Of a stretch of 45,194 nucleotides of DNA, positions 3,736 to 33,012 are shown one piece after another (the stretch's first letter is position 1; each line of letters opens with the position of its first letter). The DNA lies in contig CAYMBW010000003.1 of assembly GCA_964388775.1 (NCBI GenBank), positions 1 to 45,194 on the forward strand. The letters are read 5' to 3'. The translations under genes were made by a program, and so were the position numbers. Origin of the DNA: an uncultured Candidatus Saccharibacteria bacterium. Its GTDB lineage: Bacteria; Patescibacteriota; Minisyncoccia; Minisyncoccales; PEYH01. The notes under the pieces are model-generated. The model made no database searches. It worked only from the letters and a program-made list of their open reading frames with translations, and had not been told where the DNA came from.

Positions 3736-4564
3736 AATTATTCAGGGCGATGCCCTTGATGTTTTAAAAAAAATTGATGATAGTTTTATTGATTTAAGCA
3801 TCACATCACCACCTTATAATAAGGGCGAAAAACATAAGGGCTGGTTGGTTAAGAATGTTAAATATAACATAGCGAGCGACAGCGTTCCTGAAGAAATCTA
3901 TCAAGAGCAACAAATTAAAGTATTGGATGAAGTTTTTAGGGTTACAAAACCGGGTGGTTCATTTTTCTATAATCATAAAATAAGATGGACGCGAGGTAAA
4001 ATGTTGCACCCAGTTGAATGGGTTCAAAAAACAAAATGGACAATTAGACAGGAAATAACTTGGGACAGAATGATTGCAGCGAATATTAGGGGTTGGCGTT
4101 TTTGGCAGATTGACGAAAGAATTTATTGGCTTTATAAACCAATTGACGGTAATAAAATTGGAAAGGAGTTAAAATCTAAACACGCACTGCTAACTTCAAT
4201 TTGGCGATTTCCTCCTGAAAGAAAAAATGGGCATCCTGCCCCATTCCCGTTGATTCTACCAGCGAGAATAATTTATTCTATTTTAGACGACAAGAAAGGA
4301 GTGGTTTTGGATCCGTATGTTGGCAGCGGAACGACTTGTTTGGCTGCAAAATTATTAGCTTCAAATTATATTGGTATAGATATTTCAAAAGAATACGTAA
4401 AAGACGCGGAAAATAGATTAAAAAATTATCTAAACTATAAAAAAATAGTAGATGAAGAAATATCTAAACATATTGTAGAAAAGACGTTTGAAGAGAGAAA
4501 AAATAATAATAGCAATACTGGAAAATTTCGTAATGGAACCATGATTCAATCAAAATTTTTATAA
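3719..4564 (+). CDS. DNA methyltransferase, N4-cytosine/N6-adenine beta class
   Basis: Catalytic motif IV SPPYN (DLSITSPPYN) lies upstream of the AdoMet motif I DPYVGSGTT. That motif order is beta-class. Confidence 0.8.
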   Translation: MKPKDKIIQGDALDVLKKIDDSFIDLSITSPPYNKGEKHKGWLVKNVKYNIASDSVPEEIYQEQQIKVLDEVFRVTKPGGSFFYNHKIRWTRGKMLHPVEWVQKTKWTIRQEITWDRMIAANIRGWRFWQIDERIYWLYKPIDGNKIGKELKSKHALLTSIWRFPPERKNGHPAPFPLILPARIIYSILDDKKGVVLDPYVGSGTTCLAAKLLASNYIGIDISKEYVKDAENRLKNYLNYKKIVDEEISKHIVEKTFEERKNNNSNTGKFRNGTMIQSKFL

Positions 4565-7851: not shown

Positions 7852-7923
7852 GGCCAGGTAGCCAAGCAGCAAGGCAGCGGTTTGCAAAACCGCTATACGT
7901 GGGTGCAACTCCCGCCCTGGCCT
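7852..7923 (+). tRNA. tRNA-Cys(GCA) with non-canonical D- and T-loops
   Basis: Acceptor GGCCAGG/CCTGGCC, anticodon arm GCGGT-TTGCAAA-ACCGC, T-arm GTGGG-TGCAACT-CCCGC. The D-loop AAGCAGCAA lacks GG. Confidence 0.75.
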
Positions 7924-7938
7924 CTCAAGAGAAAACAT

Positions 7939-8021
7939 GCCGGAGTGTTGGAATAGCAGACAATCAGGACTTAAAATCCTGTGGGCTTATGCCCGTGAGG
8001 GTGCAAATCCCTCCTCCGGCA
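7939..8021 (+). tRNA. tRNA-Leu(TAA) with non-canonical D- and T-loops
   Basis: Acceptor GCCGGAG/CTCCGGC, anticodon arm CAGGA-CTTAAAA-TCCTG, long variable arm, T-arm GAGGG-TGCAAAT-CCCTC. The D-loop GAATAGCAGA lacks GG. Confidence 0.8.
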
Positions 8022-8033
8022 TAAATTTGTTTT

Positions 8034-8807
8034 ATGGGAAGAATATCGATAAAAAAAATAAATAGAGACTTTTTTAAGACATGGAACCATGAAATGGCAT
8101 ATGTTTTGGGATATATTGTGGCAGATGGATGTGTTTATAAACGGAAAGATCGTAAAAACAGTTATGTTCTTAATATAACCTCAAAAGATAGGCAACATTT
8201 ATTAAATATTGGGTTAAACATAGTAGCCAATTGCTCTATAAGCACAAAACGCAATTCTACAGGAGATCAATATTGTCAAATCCAAGTATGCAGTAGGGAA
8301 ATTTGTGAAGACTTGATGGGGATAGGAATATTCCCCAGGAAAACGCATAATTTAGATTCTATAGAAGTTCCAGAAAAATATTTTTCTGATTTCGCTCGCG
8401 GATTTTTTGACGGAGATGGAACAGTATATATTTATGAAGTAAATAATACACAACAGATTAAGGCAGGTTTCGTAAGTTCTAGTTTGCCGTTTATAACAAG
8501 ATTTAATCAATCGCTTTGTCATAGATTAGCCATTCCAACAAAGTTTATTCATCAAACAATAGACAGGAAAGGAGTCAAAATTCCAAAATACGATATTTGT
8601 TTTTATGTTGACGATTGTGAAAAATTGTTTAGACTTATGTATAGAGATAATCCGAAGTTGTTTCTTTTTCGCAAGTACGAAATTTTTGAAAAATGGAATT
8701 TTGTCAAAAGGAGACACTATAAGAAGCAGAATTATCCTTCTAAAATCGGATGGCATTTAAATAAAAATAAAGGGGCGGTTAGCTCAGTTGGTAGAGCGCA
8801 TACTTGA
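8034..8807 (+). CDS. LAGLIDADG-family homing endonuclease-like protein (two-motif, monomeric type)
   Basis: Two LAGLIDADG motifs: YVLGYIVADGCV and FARGFFDGDGTV. The ORF fills the tRNA-Leu/tRNA-Val spacer, and its last 35 nt overlap tRNA-Val. Confidence 0.8.
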   Translation: MGRISIKKINRDFFKTWNHEMAYVLGYIVADGCVYKRKDRKNSYVLNITSKDRQHLLNIGLNIVANCSISTKRNSTGDQYCQIQVCSREICEDLMGIGIFPRKTHNLDSIEVPEKYFSDFARGFFDGDGTVYIYEVNNTQQIKAGFVSSSLPFITRFNQSLCHRLAIPTKFIHQTIDRKGVKIPKYDICFYVDDCEKLFRLMYRDNPKLFLFRKYEIFEKWNFVKRRHYKKQNYPSKIGWHLNKNKGAVSSVGRAHT

Positions 8808-8845
8808 CGTGTATGAGGTCATAGGTTCGAGTCCTATACCGCCCA
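8773..8845 (+). tRNA. tRNA-Val(GAC)
   Basis: Acceptor GGGCGGT/ACCGCCC, anticodon arm CATAC-TTGACGT-GTATG, T-arm ATAGG-TTCGAGT-CCTAT. Confidence 0.9.
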
Positions 8846-8992
8846 TATTAGGATAAGTTAATGAGCAAAGCGAATTTACTTATTCTTATATCCTGAGGAG
8901 CGAAGAGACGAGGGGTACCAGTAGTCCTTCGGACTCTATCCTCAGGACATAAGAAAATATAAGCATCGCTTCGCTCGCCAATATTTTCTAAT
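8846..8992 (+). repeat. tRNA-trailer structured repeat, copy R1
   Basis: Starts with TATTAGGATAAGTTAATGAGCAAAGCGAA. Forms a long imperfect hairpin (TCCTGAGGA 8891-8899 pairs with TCCTCAGGA 8939-8947, and flanks extend the stem). Has an inner hairpin AGTCC-TTC-GGACT. Confidence 0.75.
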
Positions 8993-9064
<72 letters not shown>

Positions 9065-9184
9065 CACAATAGAACAACTTAGCGAGCAGAGCGAGCTTTA
9101 GTTGTTATTATGTCCCGAGGAGTCCCGAACGAATGTGAGGGGCGACGAGGGATAGAGCTTATTTGCTTGCTAAGAAAGATTAAT
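9065..9184 (+). repeat. tRNA-trailer structured repeat, copy R2
   Basis: Box AATAGAACAACTTAGCGAGCAGAGCGAGC, central CCCGAGGAG...GAGGGGCGACGAGGG, and a distal GAGCTTATTTGCTTGCTAAG that is complementary to the box. Confidence 0.7.
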
Positions 9185-10008: not shown

Positions 10009-10026
10009 TCAGGCATTAGAGTGTTG

Positions 10027-10110
10027 TGCCGAGAGTGGGAGTTGAACCCACACGCCATTGCTGGCACATCCCCCTCAAGGATGCGAGTCTGCCTATTCCT
10101 CCACCTCGGC
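10027..10110 (-). tRNA. tRNA-Leu(GAG)
   Basis: The reverse complement folds with acceptor GCCGAGG/TCTCGGC, anticodon arm CATCC-TTGAGGG-GGATG, a long variable arm, and T-arm GTGGG-TTCAACT-CCCAC. Confidence 0.85.
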
Positions 10111-15660: not shown

Positions 15661-18600
15661 ATGCCAAAATTAAATCCGGAAAAAAATAACAAGAATAAGA
15701 AGGCCGTTCACGAAAATAGCGAAGAGGTGTCAAATAATATAGGGTATATAAAGCCCAGAGAGGTTAGCGAGGAGATGAAAGAGAGCTACATTGATTATGC
15801 GATGTCGGTAATTGTTTCCCGCGCGCTGCCTGATGTAAGAGATGGATTGAAGCCGGTCCACCGGAGAATCCTTTATGCGATGGGAGAGGAGGGTCTTTAT
15901 TATAACGCAAGGTTTAGAAAGTCAGCCACGGTGGTTGGCGCAGTGCTTGGGCGATACCATCCCCACAGCGATACTGCGGTTTATGATTCTTTGGTAAGGA
16001 TGGCGCAGGATTTCTCTTTAAGATATATGCTGGTAAAAGGTCAAGGCAATTTTGGATGTTTCACGGGAGATACCGAAATCAAATTATGTGACGGACGAAA
16101 TTTAAACTTTGAGGATTTGGTTAAAGAACAAAAGAACGGCAAAAGGCATTGGGGATTTGCGTTTAATCATGAAAGCGGAGAAATAGAGATAGCAGAAATC
16201 AAAAAAGCCAGATTAACCAGAAAAAAAGAAAAGATTATGGAAGTGGCCCTGGACAACGGAGAAAAGATTAGGTGTACAATAGATCACCGCTTTATGTTGA
16301 GGAATGGCAGCTACAGACAGGCTCAAGATTTAGCAAAGGGAGATTCCTTGATGCCACTCTATATCAAGCATTATGATGGGGCGGAGGATTTGAATGTTAA
16401 AGGATATGAAATGGCGTATCAGCCGACTAAAAACCATTGGGATTTTATTCATAGATTATCAGATGAGTGGAATTTAAAGAATGGAATTTATAAAGTTGGC
16501 GCTGGAAGAATAAGGCACCATAAGGATTTTAATAAATTTAATAATAACCCAGACAATATTTTACGGATACAATGGGAAGATCATTGGAAAAAACATAAAG
16601 AAATTGCCTCTTCTCGTCACAAAAATGATGCGGAATATGTTGCTAAAATTGCAGAGGGAAGAGAGAAATTTTGGAGTAATCCAAAAAATAGAGAGGCCTA
16701 CTCACGACGAATGTCAGAATCAAATAGAAAGATGTGGAAAAATGTGGGTCGCAGAGCAATATGGATAGAAGCAATGATGAAAAAATGGCGGAACCCGGAA
16801 TACAAGGAATTTATGAGGCAAATGTCAAGCGAAAATCTGAAAAGATTATGGGGAAAAAAGGATTTTCAAGAATTAATGAGCAACCTTAAATCGGCAGAGA
16901 TGAAAGAAAGGTGGCAAGACGAAAAATACAGGGCTCAAATGGCAGAGTATACGAGAATGCTTTCTTTGAAACTATGGGCCAATCCAAAACATAGAGAGCA
17001 TATTTCAAAATTGATGAAGGAGAAATTCCAAGACCCAGCGGTTAGAGAAGGATTGAGCTACCGAGCTAAGAAGCTATGGGCTAACCCTGAATATCGTGCT
17101 AAATATCCTCCAGACCATTTCAAGAAAATGCACGATAAATTGTGGAGTAATCCCGAAATACGCAAATTACACAGAGAGAAAGCTATTAAGCAATGGCAGG
17201 CCCAGGACTTCAGGGATAAATTTATACAAGGCGTAATAAGAGCGAATAAGTATAGGATAGCAGAGAATCCGGAGTATATGAATAATTTAGCAGATAAGGC
17301 CCGGATTTCTCTAAAAAATAAATGGAAAGACCCCCTCTATCAAGAAAGAGTTATTAAGAGTAGGATTTTGGGCTATGCGCATTCTCTTTATCAGAAATAC
17401 GGCAAGATTACTCCGGAGATTTACGAAGAGAAGAGGAGTTTCTCTATTCCGAAAATAGAAAACGCTCTGAATTATTTTAATGATTTTTCAGAGATTGCAG
17501 AGAAAGCCCAAATATATAATCATAAAATAGTTAAAACAAAGATTCTTCGTAGGAGGGAAGACGTCTATGATGTGAGTGTTGATTGTTACCATAATTTTGC
17601 TTTGGGAGCTGGTGTTTTTGTCCATAACTCGATTGATGGGGACCCTCCATCTGCAATGAGATATTCGGAGGCGAAATTGTCCAAAATCGGGCAAGAGATG
17701 TTGAGAGACATAAACAAAGGCACGGTTGATTTCATAGACAATTATGATTCTACCAGAAAAGAACCGACGGTCTTGCCGTCTCCCCTTCCCCAACTTCTAT
17801 TAAACGGCTCATTGGGAATTGCAGTCGGTATGGCGACAAGCATCCCTCCTCACAATCTTGTGGAGACATGTGATGCAGCCATATATTTAATTGATAATCC
17901 GGAAGCGACAACCGAGGAATTGTTTCAATTTATAAAAGGTCCTGATTTTCCAACCGGAGGCATTATTTTCAATCAAAAAGAAATAATCTCTGCTTATGCC
18001 CAAGGAAAGGGGCCTGTTTTGATTCGGGGCAAGGCGGAGATTGTCGAGGAGAAAAAAGGGGGGTGGAAGATTATTATTAATGAAATACCTTATCAGGTTA
18101 ATAAGGCCACTTTGGTAGGTCAGATAGCCAAACTGATTCAGGAAAAGAAAATTAAAGGGGTGAGAGACGCCAGAGATGAATCAGATAGAGAAGGCATCAG
18201 AATCGTTATAGAATTGAAGAAAGAAGCGTTTCCTCAGAAGGTTTTGAATTGCTTATACAAAGCCACCGACTTGCAGAAAAAATTCCATCTTAATATGTTA
18301 GCCCTGGTTGATGGAATTCAACCCAAGGTTTTATCTTTGGCGGAAATGCTCGGATATTTCTTAAAACACCGTCAGGAGGTGGTTTTGAGGAGAGCCAAAT
18401 TTGATTTAGCCAAAGCCAAGGCAAGAGAGCATATTCTTTTGGGGTTGGCAAAATGTTTGGCAAATATTGACCAAGTTATTGAAACCATTAAGAAATCCAA
18501 AAACCGGGAAGACGCCAAGAGTAATCTTAAGAAAAAATTCAAACTTACCGACATTCAGGCAGAAGCCATTTTAGAGACCAAACTTTCTGCCTTAGCCCGG

Positions 18601-19737
18601 CTTGAGAGGCAAAAAATAGAAGCAGAGCTTAAGGAGATACAAGCCAAAATTGAAGAATTGTCTGAAGTTATTAAAAGTCCGGCAAAGATAAAGGCAGTTA
18701 TTAAACAAGAACTCAAAGAATTAAAAGAATCCTATCCTGACGCGCGCCGAACCAAGGTGTATAGGAAAAACGCGGAAGAAATATCAGAAGAGGACTTGGT
18801 AGCGGAAGAAGAGGTTTTAATTACTCTTACCAATAAGGGCTATGTCAAAAGAGTGAGCCCTTCTTCCTATAAGATTCAAAAGAGAGGCGGGAAAGGCATT
18901 GCCGGCATTAAGACCCATGATGATGATTTTGTAGAACATTTTTTCTTGGCGAATACGCTTGATAAATTATTGGTTTTTACCGATTCGGGCAAGGTTTTTT
19001 CAATGCCCGCTTATGAAGTGCCTTCCGCGACCAGAATTTCAAAAGGCAGAGCATTGGTCAATTTTCTGGAAATCAGCCCGGAAGATAAAATTTTAGCGGT
19101 TTTGTCTCTTGGGAAGAAGGACGACAGCGAACAGATGAAATATTTAGTGATGGCGACCAAGAATGGTATAATTAAAAGAACCGCGCTTGAAGAGTTCCGC
19201 AATTTGAGGAGTTCCGGTTTGATAGCGATTCGGCTTAAGAAGGGCGATTCTTTGAGGTCTGTTAAAAAGACAAGCGGTAAAAGCGAAATAATTTTAGTAA
19301 GCAAGCAGGCCCAGTCAATCAGATTCAAAGAAGAACAGATAAGGCCGATGCAGAGAAGCGCTGCCGGCAACAAGGGAATGCATCTCAAGAAAGATGATGA
19401 GGTAATCGGAATGGAGGCGGTTGAGCAAGACCAAGACAAGGATTATATTTTAATAGTGACTAGCAAAGGATACGGGAAGAGAAGTAGAATCTCCACTTAT
19501 CGCCAGCAAAGCAGAGGAGGGACCGGGATTATGACAGCCAAATTGACCGCCAAGACAGGGGATTTGGTTAAGGCGGAAATCGTTAAAGGAGATGAAGAGT
19601 TAATATTCATATCAAGAAAAGGTCAGGTTATAAGGACTACGGCCAAAGGGATATCCGTGCTCGGCAGAGCGACTCAAGGAGTTAGGATAATGCGCTTAGA
19701 CGAGGGCGACAAAGTCATTTCATTAATAAAATTGTAG
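15661..19737 (+). CDS. gyrA: DNA gyrase subunit A, interrupted by a 524-aa intein
   Basis: Exteins carry the GyrA signatures [27 protein letters not shown] / [17 protein letters not shown], and C-terminal beta-pinwheel repeats. Exteins total 834 aa. Confidence 0.95.
16057..17628 (+). mobile_element. Intein (Hint splicing domain plus HNH-type endonuclease plus tandem W-x-NPEYR repeat array)
   Basis: Starts [10 protein letters not shown] (block A). Has the TxxH block CTIDHRF. Ends [22 protein letters not shown], followed by +1 Ser. HNH-like segment [27 protein letters not shown] at about 16504-16600. Confidence 0.9.
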
Positions 19738-23937: not shown

Positions 23938-23978
23938 AACAACTCCCACCATGCTCTTGAAGGCGGGAGTTGTTTTTG
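23938..23978 (+). terminator. Rho-independent terminator
   Basis: AACAACTCCCACC pairs with GGCGGGAGTTGTT (13 bp, one A-C mismatch) around an 11-nt loop, followed by TTTT. Confidence 0.75.
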
Positions 23979-23993
23979 TTAGTATTGGAGTAT

Positions 23994-24166
23994 GCCCCTG
24001 TGGCGGAATTGGCGACTTGCCCTCCACCAATGTGCTGGGATGGCGAAATTGGCAAACGCACTGGGTTTAGGACCCAGCGGGGAGACCCTTGAGAGTTCGA
24101 ATCTCTCTCCCAGCACATTGGTGGGGGGTCTCGTAAGAGGTGCAGGTTCAACTCCTGCCGGGGGCA
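23994..24166 (+). ncRNA. Composite nested tRNA: outer type-II tRNA-like scaffold whose anticodon loop is replaced by a whole tRNA-Leu
   Basis: Outer acceptor GCCCCTG (23994-24000) pairs with CGGGGGC (24159-24165), then discriminator A. D-arm with GG loop. 13-bp helix 24021-24033 with 24115-24127. Variable hairpin TCTC-GTAA-GAGG. T-arm GCAGG-TTCAACT-CCTGC. Confidence 0.6.
24034..24115 (+). tRNA. tRNA-Leu(TAG), nested inside the outer tRNA-like scaffold
   Basis: GCTGGGA TG GCG AAATTGGCAAA CGC A CTGGG TTTAGGA CCCAG CGGGGAGACCCTT GAGAG TTCGAAT CTCTC TCCCAGC A. Confidence 0.9.
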
Positions 24167-24220
24167 TATTCGTTGCGCTCAAATTAAAAGTTAAAAAATA
24201 AAAATTAAAAATAAAAAAAA

Positions 24221-24241
24221 CTATCCACTCTGGGCGGATAG
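24221..24241 (-). terminator. Probable intrinsic terminator for the minus-strand gene ending at 24320
   Basis: The minus strand reads CTATCCGCCCAGAGTGGATAG (6-bp stem plus inner pair) followed by TTTTTTTT. Confidence 0.45.
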
Positions 24242-24276
24242 CGAATATAGCTGTTAATTTGTTAGTGTCAGAGTGG

Positions 24277-29026: not shown

Positions 29027-29129
29027 TATTAGAAGAAGTTAGCGAGCAAAGCGAGCTTACTTATTTTTATACCACGCCGAAGCCCCGAGCTGAAGGCGAG
29101 GGGCGAAGGAGGGTTATCCCTACTTTTCT
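29027..29129 (+). repeat. tRNA-trailer structured repeat, copy R3
   Basis: TATTAGAAGAAGTTAGCGAGCAAAGCGAGCTTACTTATTTTTATA...CCCCGAGCTGAAGGCGAGGGGCGAAGGAGGG shares its box and centre with R1 and R2. Confidence 0.7.
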
Positions 29130-32934: not shown

Positions 32935-33012
32935 CCGACCGGGGCGGGTAATTTTTCTTTAGGATATAATAGCGAGTAACGCTTATTGCGTTCGCTAACT
33001 CGCTCTAATATG
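32935..33012 (-). repeat. tRNA-trailer repeat, copy R5 (shorter)
   Basis: On the minus strand, after tRNA-Arg: ATATTAGAGCGAGTTAGCGAACGCAATAAGCGTTACTCGCTATTATATCC. It shares the TATTAGA..AGCGAG..TTAGCGA box and self-pairs (GAGCGAGTTAGCGAACGC with GCGTTACTCGC). Confidence 0.55.

Follow-up and report, generated by a model that had tools for sequence, protein, structure and literature searches.

We analysed a stretch of 45,194 nucleotides (nt) from an uncultured Candidatus Saccharibacteria bacterium (contig CAYMBW010000003.1, positions 1 to 45,194 of the forward strand), referred to here as the window. It is a chromosome segment of the Patescibacteria (Candidate Phyla Radiation, CPR) encoding TsaD, FtsH, IF-2, ribosomal protein L19, many pilins, an intein-containing GyrA, a type IV pilus/competence-type cluster, RecG and 16 transfer RNAs (tRNAs). 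Between a pilin gene upstream and a convergent O-antigen-ligase gene lies a 173-nt unit on the forward strand (23994–24166), in which a complete tRNA-Leu(UAG) gene stands between the two halves of a second tRNA, the inner gene being bracketed by a long helix. All coordinates and sequences were rechecked against the window, and the nested anatomy that a first-pass annotation of this DNA had described proved correct at every position and base. A phage origin, suspected from the 16 tRNAs, was rejected: phage BLAST matches were short and confined to the inner tRNA, and the gene content is that of a CPR chromosome.

The inner gene (24034–24115, +) is a complete type-II tRNA-Leu(UAG) with the anticodon loop TTTAGGA and discriminator A24115; CCA is not encoded. 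It was identified by ARAGORN, which reports Leu(tag), by a full-length match to Rfam RF00005 (60.1 bits, model positions 1–71), and by its match to the genes at two related loci, L003 and L001. The inner tRNA-Leu(UAG) is the presumed working gene. The outer molecule, on the same strand, begins with the acceptor strand GCCCCTG (23994–24000), which is identical to positions 1–7 of the intact tRNA-Leu(UAG) of a third related locus, L007, and forms seven pairs, one of them U–G, with CGGGGGC at 24159–24165. This 3' strand and its discriminator A24166 (24159–24166) were assigned from the pairing and from the L007 comparison, and again no CCA is encoded. U8–G9 and the D-arm, GCGG-AATTGGCGAC-TTGC, occupy 24001–24020. 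Homology to the intact L007 gene stops after 24013, and the D-stem is weak, containing two G–U pairs and a 3' strand that differs from that of L007 (CGC). The variable region (24128–24141) comprises a G, the hairpin TCTC-GTAA-GAGG and a T; homology to L007 resumes at 24129 and continues with a single mismatch, located in the hairpin loop. A perfect T-arm, GCAGG-TTCAACT-CCTGC (24142–24158), completes the outer molecule.

The 5' arm of the bracket helix, CCTCCACCAATGT (24021–24033, +), occurs once within the window, and its first five bases stand in place of the outer anticodon stem. It pairs with ACATTGGTGGGGG (24115–24127) over 13 consecutive positions, 12 of them Watson–Crick; the 3' arm itself, CATTGGTGGGGG (24116–24127, +), contributes 12 of the pairs, and the remaining one joins T24033 to the inner discriminator A24115. 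The single G–U pair is T24023–G24125. The helix can be extended to 15 pairs by C24020–G24128 and G24019–T24129, in competition with the outer D-stem. Folding of the full 173 nt, which the first-pass annotation had suggested as a check, returned exactly the nested double cloverleaf as the predicted minimum-free-energy structure (-95.6 kcal/mol, z = -6.8 relative to shuffles), in which the 13 helix pairs and the seven of the inner acceptor stem form 20 stacked pairs. A duplex of this predicted length would correspond to the roughly two helical turns of an RNase III stalk.

The helix between leader and trailer is far beyond chance. At the 15 other tRNAs of the window no more than five consecutive leader–trailer pairs are found, against 13–15 at the nested unit, and among 1141 distinct tRNAs in all the DNA fetched only three have at least 12, two of these three being nested. 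An assembly chimera or a sequencing artefact fusing two tRNA-Leu genes might be envisaged on the grounds that tRNA genes are repeats, able to break or mis-join assemblies, and that several related contigs end at tRNA clusters (as in L023). Against this, the whole 430-nt intergenic region is 100% identical in L011 and L012, which come from JGI and ENA assemblies of other samples made with different assemblers; the nestings found in L033 and L023 (described below) were also recovered in independent assemblies (L167 and L172, respectively); and a perfect 13-bp inverted repeat is not something that a chimera would produce. The probability of an artefact is, in our estimation, negligible.

The outer halves have the form of a tRNA. 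Of 210 constructs from which the inner part had been deleted, 108 were recognised as tRNAs by ARAGORN, with a constant start base and with an 'anticodon' that tracked the cut point only. Because the calls share their start while the anticodon follows the cut, the outer molecule is a tRNA body without an anticodon of its own, in any register, and it cannot decode. With the insert left in, RF00005 matched only the outer T-arm (14.1 bits, E 2.9), a partial and not a full-length match. Of the two molecules, for which the first-pass annotation had proposed a check with tRNA-finding programs, the inner gene was recognised in full, the outer one being visible to Rfam as a T-arm alone and to ARAGORN only in constructs, with an arbitrary anticodon. 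In intron mode ARAGORN did not call the outer gene and reported the inner gene alone. A hidden anticodon or intron in the outer gene was rejected on these two grounds.

Other known kinds of interrupted or composite RNA were considered in turn. The bulge-helix-bulge of archaeal introns is absent in the window, where the 13 pairs are uninterrupted; the helices of two other nested units, L022 and L023, do contain internal loops, but not with the 3-4-3 geometry of that motif. For none of these three units does exon joining in any register yield a consistent 7-nt anticodon loop (U33, purine at 37), and a gene for a splicing endonuclease or ligase is not present in the 45-kb window. A search of 23960–24200 for a group I intron gave no match at E up to 10, and the 108-nt insert, 82 nt of which are tRNA, falls below the roughly 200 nt or more of such an intron. 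ARAGORN reported no transfer-messenger RNA (tmRNA), pair 3–70 is C–G and not G3–U70, and there is no tag reading frame. Membership of another RNA family was rejected, as Rfam returned tRNA matches only, both at the gathering threshold and at E up to 10, apart from mascRNA and plastid matches that are noise. A protein-coding reading was likewise rejected: three open reading frames (ORFs) overlap the region, and none of the three has a Pfam match. The outer pieces are complementary parts of one gene, with no duplication, and so are not fragments of an integrase attachment site. Terminal inverted repeats like those of a miniature inverted-repeat transposable element are present (13 bp, or 20 bp if the inner acceptor stem is included), but neither a target-site duplication nor multiple copies were found: no duplication flanks the unit, the target sequence is lost and the arms occur once in the window.

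The origin of the two genes is indicated by the relatives of the locus. The region between the pilin and O-antigen-ligase genes is syntenic in five lineages, the ligase relatives being 73, 68, 51 and 50% identical, and it carries in each case one tRNA-Leu(UAG) behind the same promoter-like site; the tRNA genes of the relatives are plain and un-nested. In the window this putative promoter reads TTGAAG (23957–23962), 17 nt, TAGTAT (23980–23985) on the forward strand, and lies in and after the pilin terminator hairpin, with a predicted start at about 23992, at the outer 5' end. A simple consensus scan did not list the site at 23957–23985; the pattern TTGAAG/TTGAAA-17-TAnnnT also precedes the tRNA-Leu of L001, L003, L007 and L013. 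The intergenic region ends at the terminator hairpin of the convergent ligase gene (24220–24242, -), which has no T-run on the forward strand.

The inner tRNA is identical at 82/82 positions to the gene of L003 and at 80/82 to that of L001, and at 53/88 to that of L007. The outer 5' half is identical to the L007 gene at 20/20 positions and the outer 3' half at 37/38, which makes 57/58 in total for the resident gene of a distant relative, placed at the same distance from the -10 element. The closer relatives L001 and L003 therefore have the inner type and L007 the outer type, L013 having a third; the tree from protein identities is ((window, L001), L003), (L007, L013). The tRNA-Glu gene of the neighbourhood is identical between the window and L003 at 72/72 positions and between the window and L007 at 62/73. 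Because this neighbouring tRNA shows only ordinary divergence, the tRNA-Leu at the locus has been replaced and has not merely diverged. On the strength of these alignments, the outer molecule is the former resident tRNA-Leu(UAG) of the locus, whose positions ~21–43, comprising the 3' strand of the D-arm and the anticodon arm, have been replaced by a 108-nt cassette consisting of a 13-bp inverted repeat that brackets a complete second tRNA-Leu(UAG).

With moderate confidence, we read the 173-nt unit as two tRNA-Leu(UAG) genes, one inside the other, caught as an intermediate in tRNA gene replacement. The old promoter would still fire at the outer 5' end and give a single precursor folding as nested cloverleaves. 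From this precursor the inner tRNA would be freed by RNase P at its 5' end and by RNase Z or exonucleases at its 3' end, with CCA added afterwards; an initial opening of the 20-bp coaxial stack of bracket helix and inner acceptor stem by RNase III may come before these steps. The inner tRNA would be the sole functional product and the outer halves discarded by-products. If the inner type was vertically inherited, the insertion should be older than the divergence of the window from L001 and L003. It is not directly datable, because the protein collection holds no ligase homologue between 73% and 100% identity. A scan of GTDB species with the inner tRNA core found three species, none of them nested; the species of the window is not among the representatives.

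A recombination breakpoint was observed at the same gene elsewhere. L009 encodes a ligase protein identical to that of L007 and L008, and its DNA is identical to theirs from the variable arm of the tRNA-Leu onwards, with unrelated DNA upstream; the anticodon stem differs by a compensated change (TATGG/CCATA). Because the downstream DNA is identical and the upstream DNA unrelated, we place an inter-lineage breakpoint inside the L009 tRNA-Leu gene. The nested allele probably moves between lineages in a similar manner, by recombination in naturally competent cells with the very highly conserved tRNA halves serving as homology arms, a suggestion supported by this breakpoint within the same tRNA gene and by the competence-type machinery and RecG encoded in the window.

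The arrangement is not confined to this bacterium. One narrow metagenome pattern (an outer D-loop, 115–145 nt and an outer T-loop) returned 28 loci, mostly tandem tRNAs. With this one pattern and one genome scan as the coverage, the nested set comprises four or five lineages, some of them possibly interrelated. In L022, L023/L172 and L033/L167, a tRNA-Leu(UAG) scoring 55–57 bits with Rfam lies inside Leu-type halves. The outer halves of L022, L023 and L033 have different acceptor stems, and their brackets differ yet are complementary. Helix pairs were counted with a hand-anchored script; a MAFFT alignment misaligned the helix columns. Over four nested units the acceptor and T stems pair in 96/96 cells, and 16/24 pairs have changed on both sides. 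Because the stems pair throughout with two-sided changes, each outer shell derives from a real and distinct tRNA. In every example homology to an intact tRNA ends after the D-loop and resumes at position 44/45, and the outer five bracket pairs, which occupy the place of the anticodon stem, are G+C-rich (CCTCC/GGGGG, CCGCC/GGCGG, TCCCG/CGGGA twice and CCCCG/CGGGG). A sequence-independent scan of 1234 predicted tRNAs recovered just these cases and about the expected number of chance matches.

The hosts of L033 and L023 are not CPR. L033 encodes fumarase, YvcK and PtsI, with the nearest YvcK relatives in Omnitrophota, and L023 encodes GGDEF and MiaA; the two hosts have a tRNA-Arg/Lys/Leu cluster in common and may be related to each other. 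L022 is of uncertain affiliation. A scan of viral contigs gave no tRNA-in-tRNA, only tandem tRNAs and interrupted tRNAs of a different kind. The latter were seen in L047, L051, L056, L071, L072, L086, L093, L109, L112, L114, L131, L135, L141 and L157 as type-II tRNA-like phage genes with matching acceptor strands and a non-tRNA insert of 90–110 nt, placed either inside the D-loop (bracket GGCAAG/CTTGCC; L056, L086 and L135) or after the D-arm, and include a recurrent 162-nt family (TGTAGGA...TCCTACA). L039 (6099–6260, -) contains a Leu-type tRNA (GTCGAAG...CTTCGACA) in which an insert of about 100 nt replaces a simple anticodon arm; this insert is itself no tRNA, and it falls short of the usual length of a group I intron.

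Several loci document what becomes of the outer copies. In L033 (2625–2969; L167 1005–1350) an intact A-type tRNA lies in B-type halves that lie in turn in A-type halves, giving three layers, with an orphan B 5' half upstream; the host is non-CPR and high in G+C. This nest was reproduced with one single-nucleotide polymorphism in the independent ENA assembly L167, and a direct repeat, ACAT(T)ATTGGAG, stands on both sides of the middle unit. Strain L168, whose YvcK protein is identical to that of L033, supplies a before-and-after pair: the B-type gene is intact in L168 where that of L033 is split by an A-type cassette. In L168 (160–460) an older outer 5' half has a 70-nt G+C-rich palindromic insert in its D-loop, the helix contains one mismatch and one wobble, both uncompensated, and a 6-nt repeat, GCGAAT, is found on both sides of the inserted unit. 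L174, from the L023 lineage (GGDEF protein 75% identical), has an inner-type tRNA that follows immediately on tRNA-Lys; nothing is left of the outer 5' half or of the helix, and the T-loop of the remaining outer T-arm is split by a 35-nt insert. L029 (= L032 = L034; ~4000–4220, -) contains a tRNA-Leu(CAG) within a 13-bp leader–trailer helix (CCCCGTTAGAAAT/ATTTCTAACGGGG), flanked by 5' and 3' Leu halves with mismatched acceptor strands and by G+C-rich palindromic filler, and seems to be the ruin of at least two nesting layers. These loci show that outer shells are dispensable and decay, and that nesting can happen repeatedly. A recurrent and apparently undescribed mode of tRNA-Leu gene replacement is the best explanation of these arrangements. 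The possibility raised by the first-pass annotation that a decaying tRNA had been hit by a tRNA-sized insertion is supported, with the additions that a tRNA-Leu(UAG) was also the gene hit and that other bacteria show the same kind of event.

Two features of L172, the independent assembly of L023, were noted in passing. Downstream of the tRNA cluster (2283–2465) the 3' end of the outer tRNA is present once more, as an orphan (GTTCAACTCCCACGCTCGGCA) resembling an integrase attachment-site duplicate that borders about 135 nt of leftover DNA. An RtcB RNA-ligase gene (638–1780) directly precedes the tRNA-Arg/Lys/nested-Leu cluster. RtcB-mediated splicing was considered and rejected, no exon junction giving an anticodon loop, and the position of the gene beside the cluster is probably a coincidence.

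Several observations weigh against a simple replacement intermediate. The outer halves of the window (57/58) and the helix are preserved while the flanking intergenic DNA is unalignable and saturated with change; such a preserved shell fits purifying selection, unless the nested allele arrived recently by recombination. The identical junctions and G+C-rich bracket ends point to a specific mechanism or constraint that our reading does not name, and no enzyme or insertion mechanism was identified for placing the first bracketed cassette in an anticodon arm. Unequal crossing-over, gene conversion and integrase action were considered on paper and rejected as origins: none gives two halves bracketing an intact gene with the middle replaced. 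A tRNA whose leader and trailer are base-paired is a poor substrate for RNase P, and an acceptor stem prolonged by a 13-bp helix is expected to impede the enzyme, making processing non-trivial. Around the tRNA of L001 and L003 neither the outer halves nor the helix are recognisable, there being no significant similarity save for one 13-nt match in L001. There, GGCAGTATTCGTT upstream of the tRNA resembles the outer 3' end of the window and its flank (p ~0.004, uncorrected for the 8 comparisons made), but stands on the side of the tRNA opposite to that expected. This match counts against a simple history of nesting followed by decay because such a history does not predict it.

The preservation of the shell is also what would be expected of a cis-acting scaffold, a kind of reading that the first-pass annotation had listed as a precursor scaffold, in which outer shell and 13-bp helix are selected to aid expression of the inner tRNA, through protection or as an RNase III stalk. 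In the window the outer halves and helix are undamaged although the insertion seems to be old, the 173 nt have a clean predicted fold, the 20 stacked pairs are long enough for RNase III going by general knowledge of that enzyme, and the topology is that of an engineered tRNA scaffold, with an RNA in place of the anticodon loop. We nevertheless think this quite improbable: L003 and L001 carry the inner-type tRNA (82/82 and 80/82) with the promoter in common but no shell around it, other lineages show outer copies in decay, and a leader–trailer helix is found at 0/15 of the other tRNAs of the window.

A product acting in trans is less probable again. The first-pass annotation had favoured the idea of a stable, possibly chargeable split tRNA, its outer halves held together by the 12–13-bp helix. 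Tailed with CCA and charged by LeuRS, such halves would form an anticodon-less leucine carrier for non-ribosomal use. E. coli LeuRS ignores the anticodon, ARAGORN accepts the outer body as a tRNA, and the acceptor stem, A73, T-arm, long variable arm and G18G19-type D-loop are all intact. The D-stem, however, is weakened to two G–U pairs, and no partner enzyme was found nearby. The L001 and L003 loci keep the inner-type tRNA only, so that these relatives are entirely without the molecule, and outer halves elsewhere are stacked, orphaned, mismatched or interrupted, unlike a selected product. Decay of this kind, which the annotation had proposed to look for among orthologues, is what L174 and L168 display, the former having lost its 5' half and helix and the latter having an uncompensated helix mismatch. 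We consider a functional split tRNA very unlikely.

The recurrence of the same junctions can be read in another way, with the bracketed tRNA-Leu as a minimal selfish element moved by a dedicated nuclease or recombinase that is encoded elsewhere or was formerly within it. Such a cassette would home into the anticodon arm of a resident tRNA-Leu, destroy it and substitute its own copy, after which the host could not lose the cassette. Junctions are the same in all examples and the bracket ends alike across lineages; L033 seems to have undergone repeated, alternating invasions, with almost no decay between layers; tRNA-Leu sequences are much more alike across lineages than the genes next to them; and the inserted unit stands between short direct repeats in both L168 (GCGAAT) and L033 (ACAT(T)ATTGGAG). 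A free-standing LAGLIDADG-type endonuclease ORF beside another tRNA-Leu of the window also fits the idea. On the other side, none of the nested copies has a nuclease or recombinase linked to it, neither a target-site duplication nor a second copy of the inverted-repeat arms was found for the window cassette in 45 kb, and the three species found in the GTDB scan with the inner sequence are un-nested. Moreover, the inner tRNAs are typical of their lineages in base composition and identical to the resident genes of relatives, and are not one travelling sequence. As an account of how the cassette propagates, we rate this as unlikely. The broader proposition, that in bacteria of several phyla a selfish tRNA-Leu bracketed by inverted repeats kills and replaces the resident gene, making Russian dolls and driving fast horizontal turnover, is a little less doubtful but still tentative.

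The endonuclease ORF itself (8034–8807, +) encodes 257 amino acids matching PF14528 (E 2.6e-10), with no sequence relative in the PDB. It starts 12 nt after tRNA-Leu(UAA) (7938–8022) and runs into tRNA-Val (8773–8845), and its position may bear on tRNA-Leu gene exchange. Other tRNA genes of the window have peculiarities of their own. U55 is near-universal in tRNA T-loops; tRNA-Cys (7852–7924) and the same tRNA-Leu(UAA) have the T-loops TGCAACT and TGCAAAT, with G in place of U55, and the lowest Rfam scores in the window. A motif close to ATTAGAAnAAGTTAGCGAGC follows a few bases 3' of tRNA-Val, Phe, Glu and Arg (8846–8866, 9066–9087, 29028–29047 and 32990–33011 (-)), and the spacers of about 120 nt between tRNA-Val, Phe and Gly look like related structured repeats. 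At 10026–10110 (-), ARAGORN calls a tRNA-Leu(GAG) with an unusual D-loop (GGAGGAATAGGCAGACTC) that falls below the Rfam gathering threshold. The GyrA gene (15661–19737, +) carries an intein of about 510 amino acids (Intein_splicing, residues 144–656).

If replacement by nesting is correct, it offers a way of exchanging an essential single-copy tRNA gene for a foreign one while the cell has that tRNA at all times. It would also account for the tRNA-Leu(UAG) of one locus having diverged among relatives much more than its neighbours, and it carries a warning for annotation, in that tRNA finders silently report the inner gene only. The shared junctions and undamaged outer halves would be compatible with a dedicated mechanism or with a processing role. 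Disrupted tRNA genes (with introns, split or permuted) are known in archaea and algae, and tRNA genes are classic integration targets. The first-pass annotation knew of no bacterial gene with this architecture, and our full-text literature search agrees: it found none, nor any account of an entire tRNA gene taking the place of the anticodon arm in another gene for that isoacceptor, recurrently and in several bacterial lineages.

The closest parallels are found among the disrupted tRNAs of archaea, which include the split halves of Nanoarchaeum, the tri-split tRNAs of Caldivirga and the mobile tRNA introns of Thermoproteales. As in the nested unit, halves of archaeal split tRNAs are joined at the anticodon arm by a G+C-rich helix of about 12–14 bp, and the sequences that interrupt archaeal tRNAs behave as mobile DNA (PMC10714607). 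The nested unit differs in being bacterial, in having no bulge-helix-bulge, in that removal of the insert restores no anticodon loop, and in that a whole tRNA, identical in isoacceptor type to the interrupted one, forms the insert. Group I introns, such as that of cyanobacterial tRNA-Leu(UAA), share with it an insertion in the anticodon arm of a bacterial tRNA-Leu; here, by contrast, the insert is a 108-nt combination of tRNA and inverted repeat, and the anticodon stem-loop has been deleted, such that splicing could not restore function. Fragments at integrase attachment sites are likewise partial tRNAs beside intact ones, with tRNA-Leu a favoured target and one such 3' duplicate present in L172, but they are direct repeats of the 3' part at the ends of islands, whereas in the nested unit 5' and 3' halves bracket a tRNA.

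Other likenesses concern the RNA. In the intervening sequences and RNase III stalks of ribosomal RNA (rRNA) a helix extension carries an RNA or insert that is excised without religation, the leftovers remaining paired or being degraded; the host of the nested insert is a dead tRNA and not a working rRNA, and RNase III cleavage is here only a presumed step. The tRNA-like domain of tmRNA and engineered tRNA scaffolds also combine an acceptor and T-arm with a long helix that replaces the anticodon stem and carries foreign RNA. The nested unit differs from these in lacking G3–U70 and a tag frame, and its outer part derives from an ordinary tRNA-Leu. Homing endonucleases in tRNA clusters, such as SegB of phage T4, differ from the nested copies in that the latter have no associated endonuclease. 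In both, an insert destroys its target and brings a resistant replacement, and the homing cycle of invasion, fixation, decay and re-invasion resembles the succession of layers described here.

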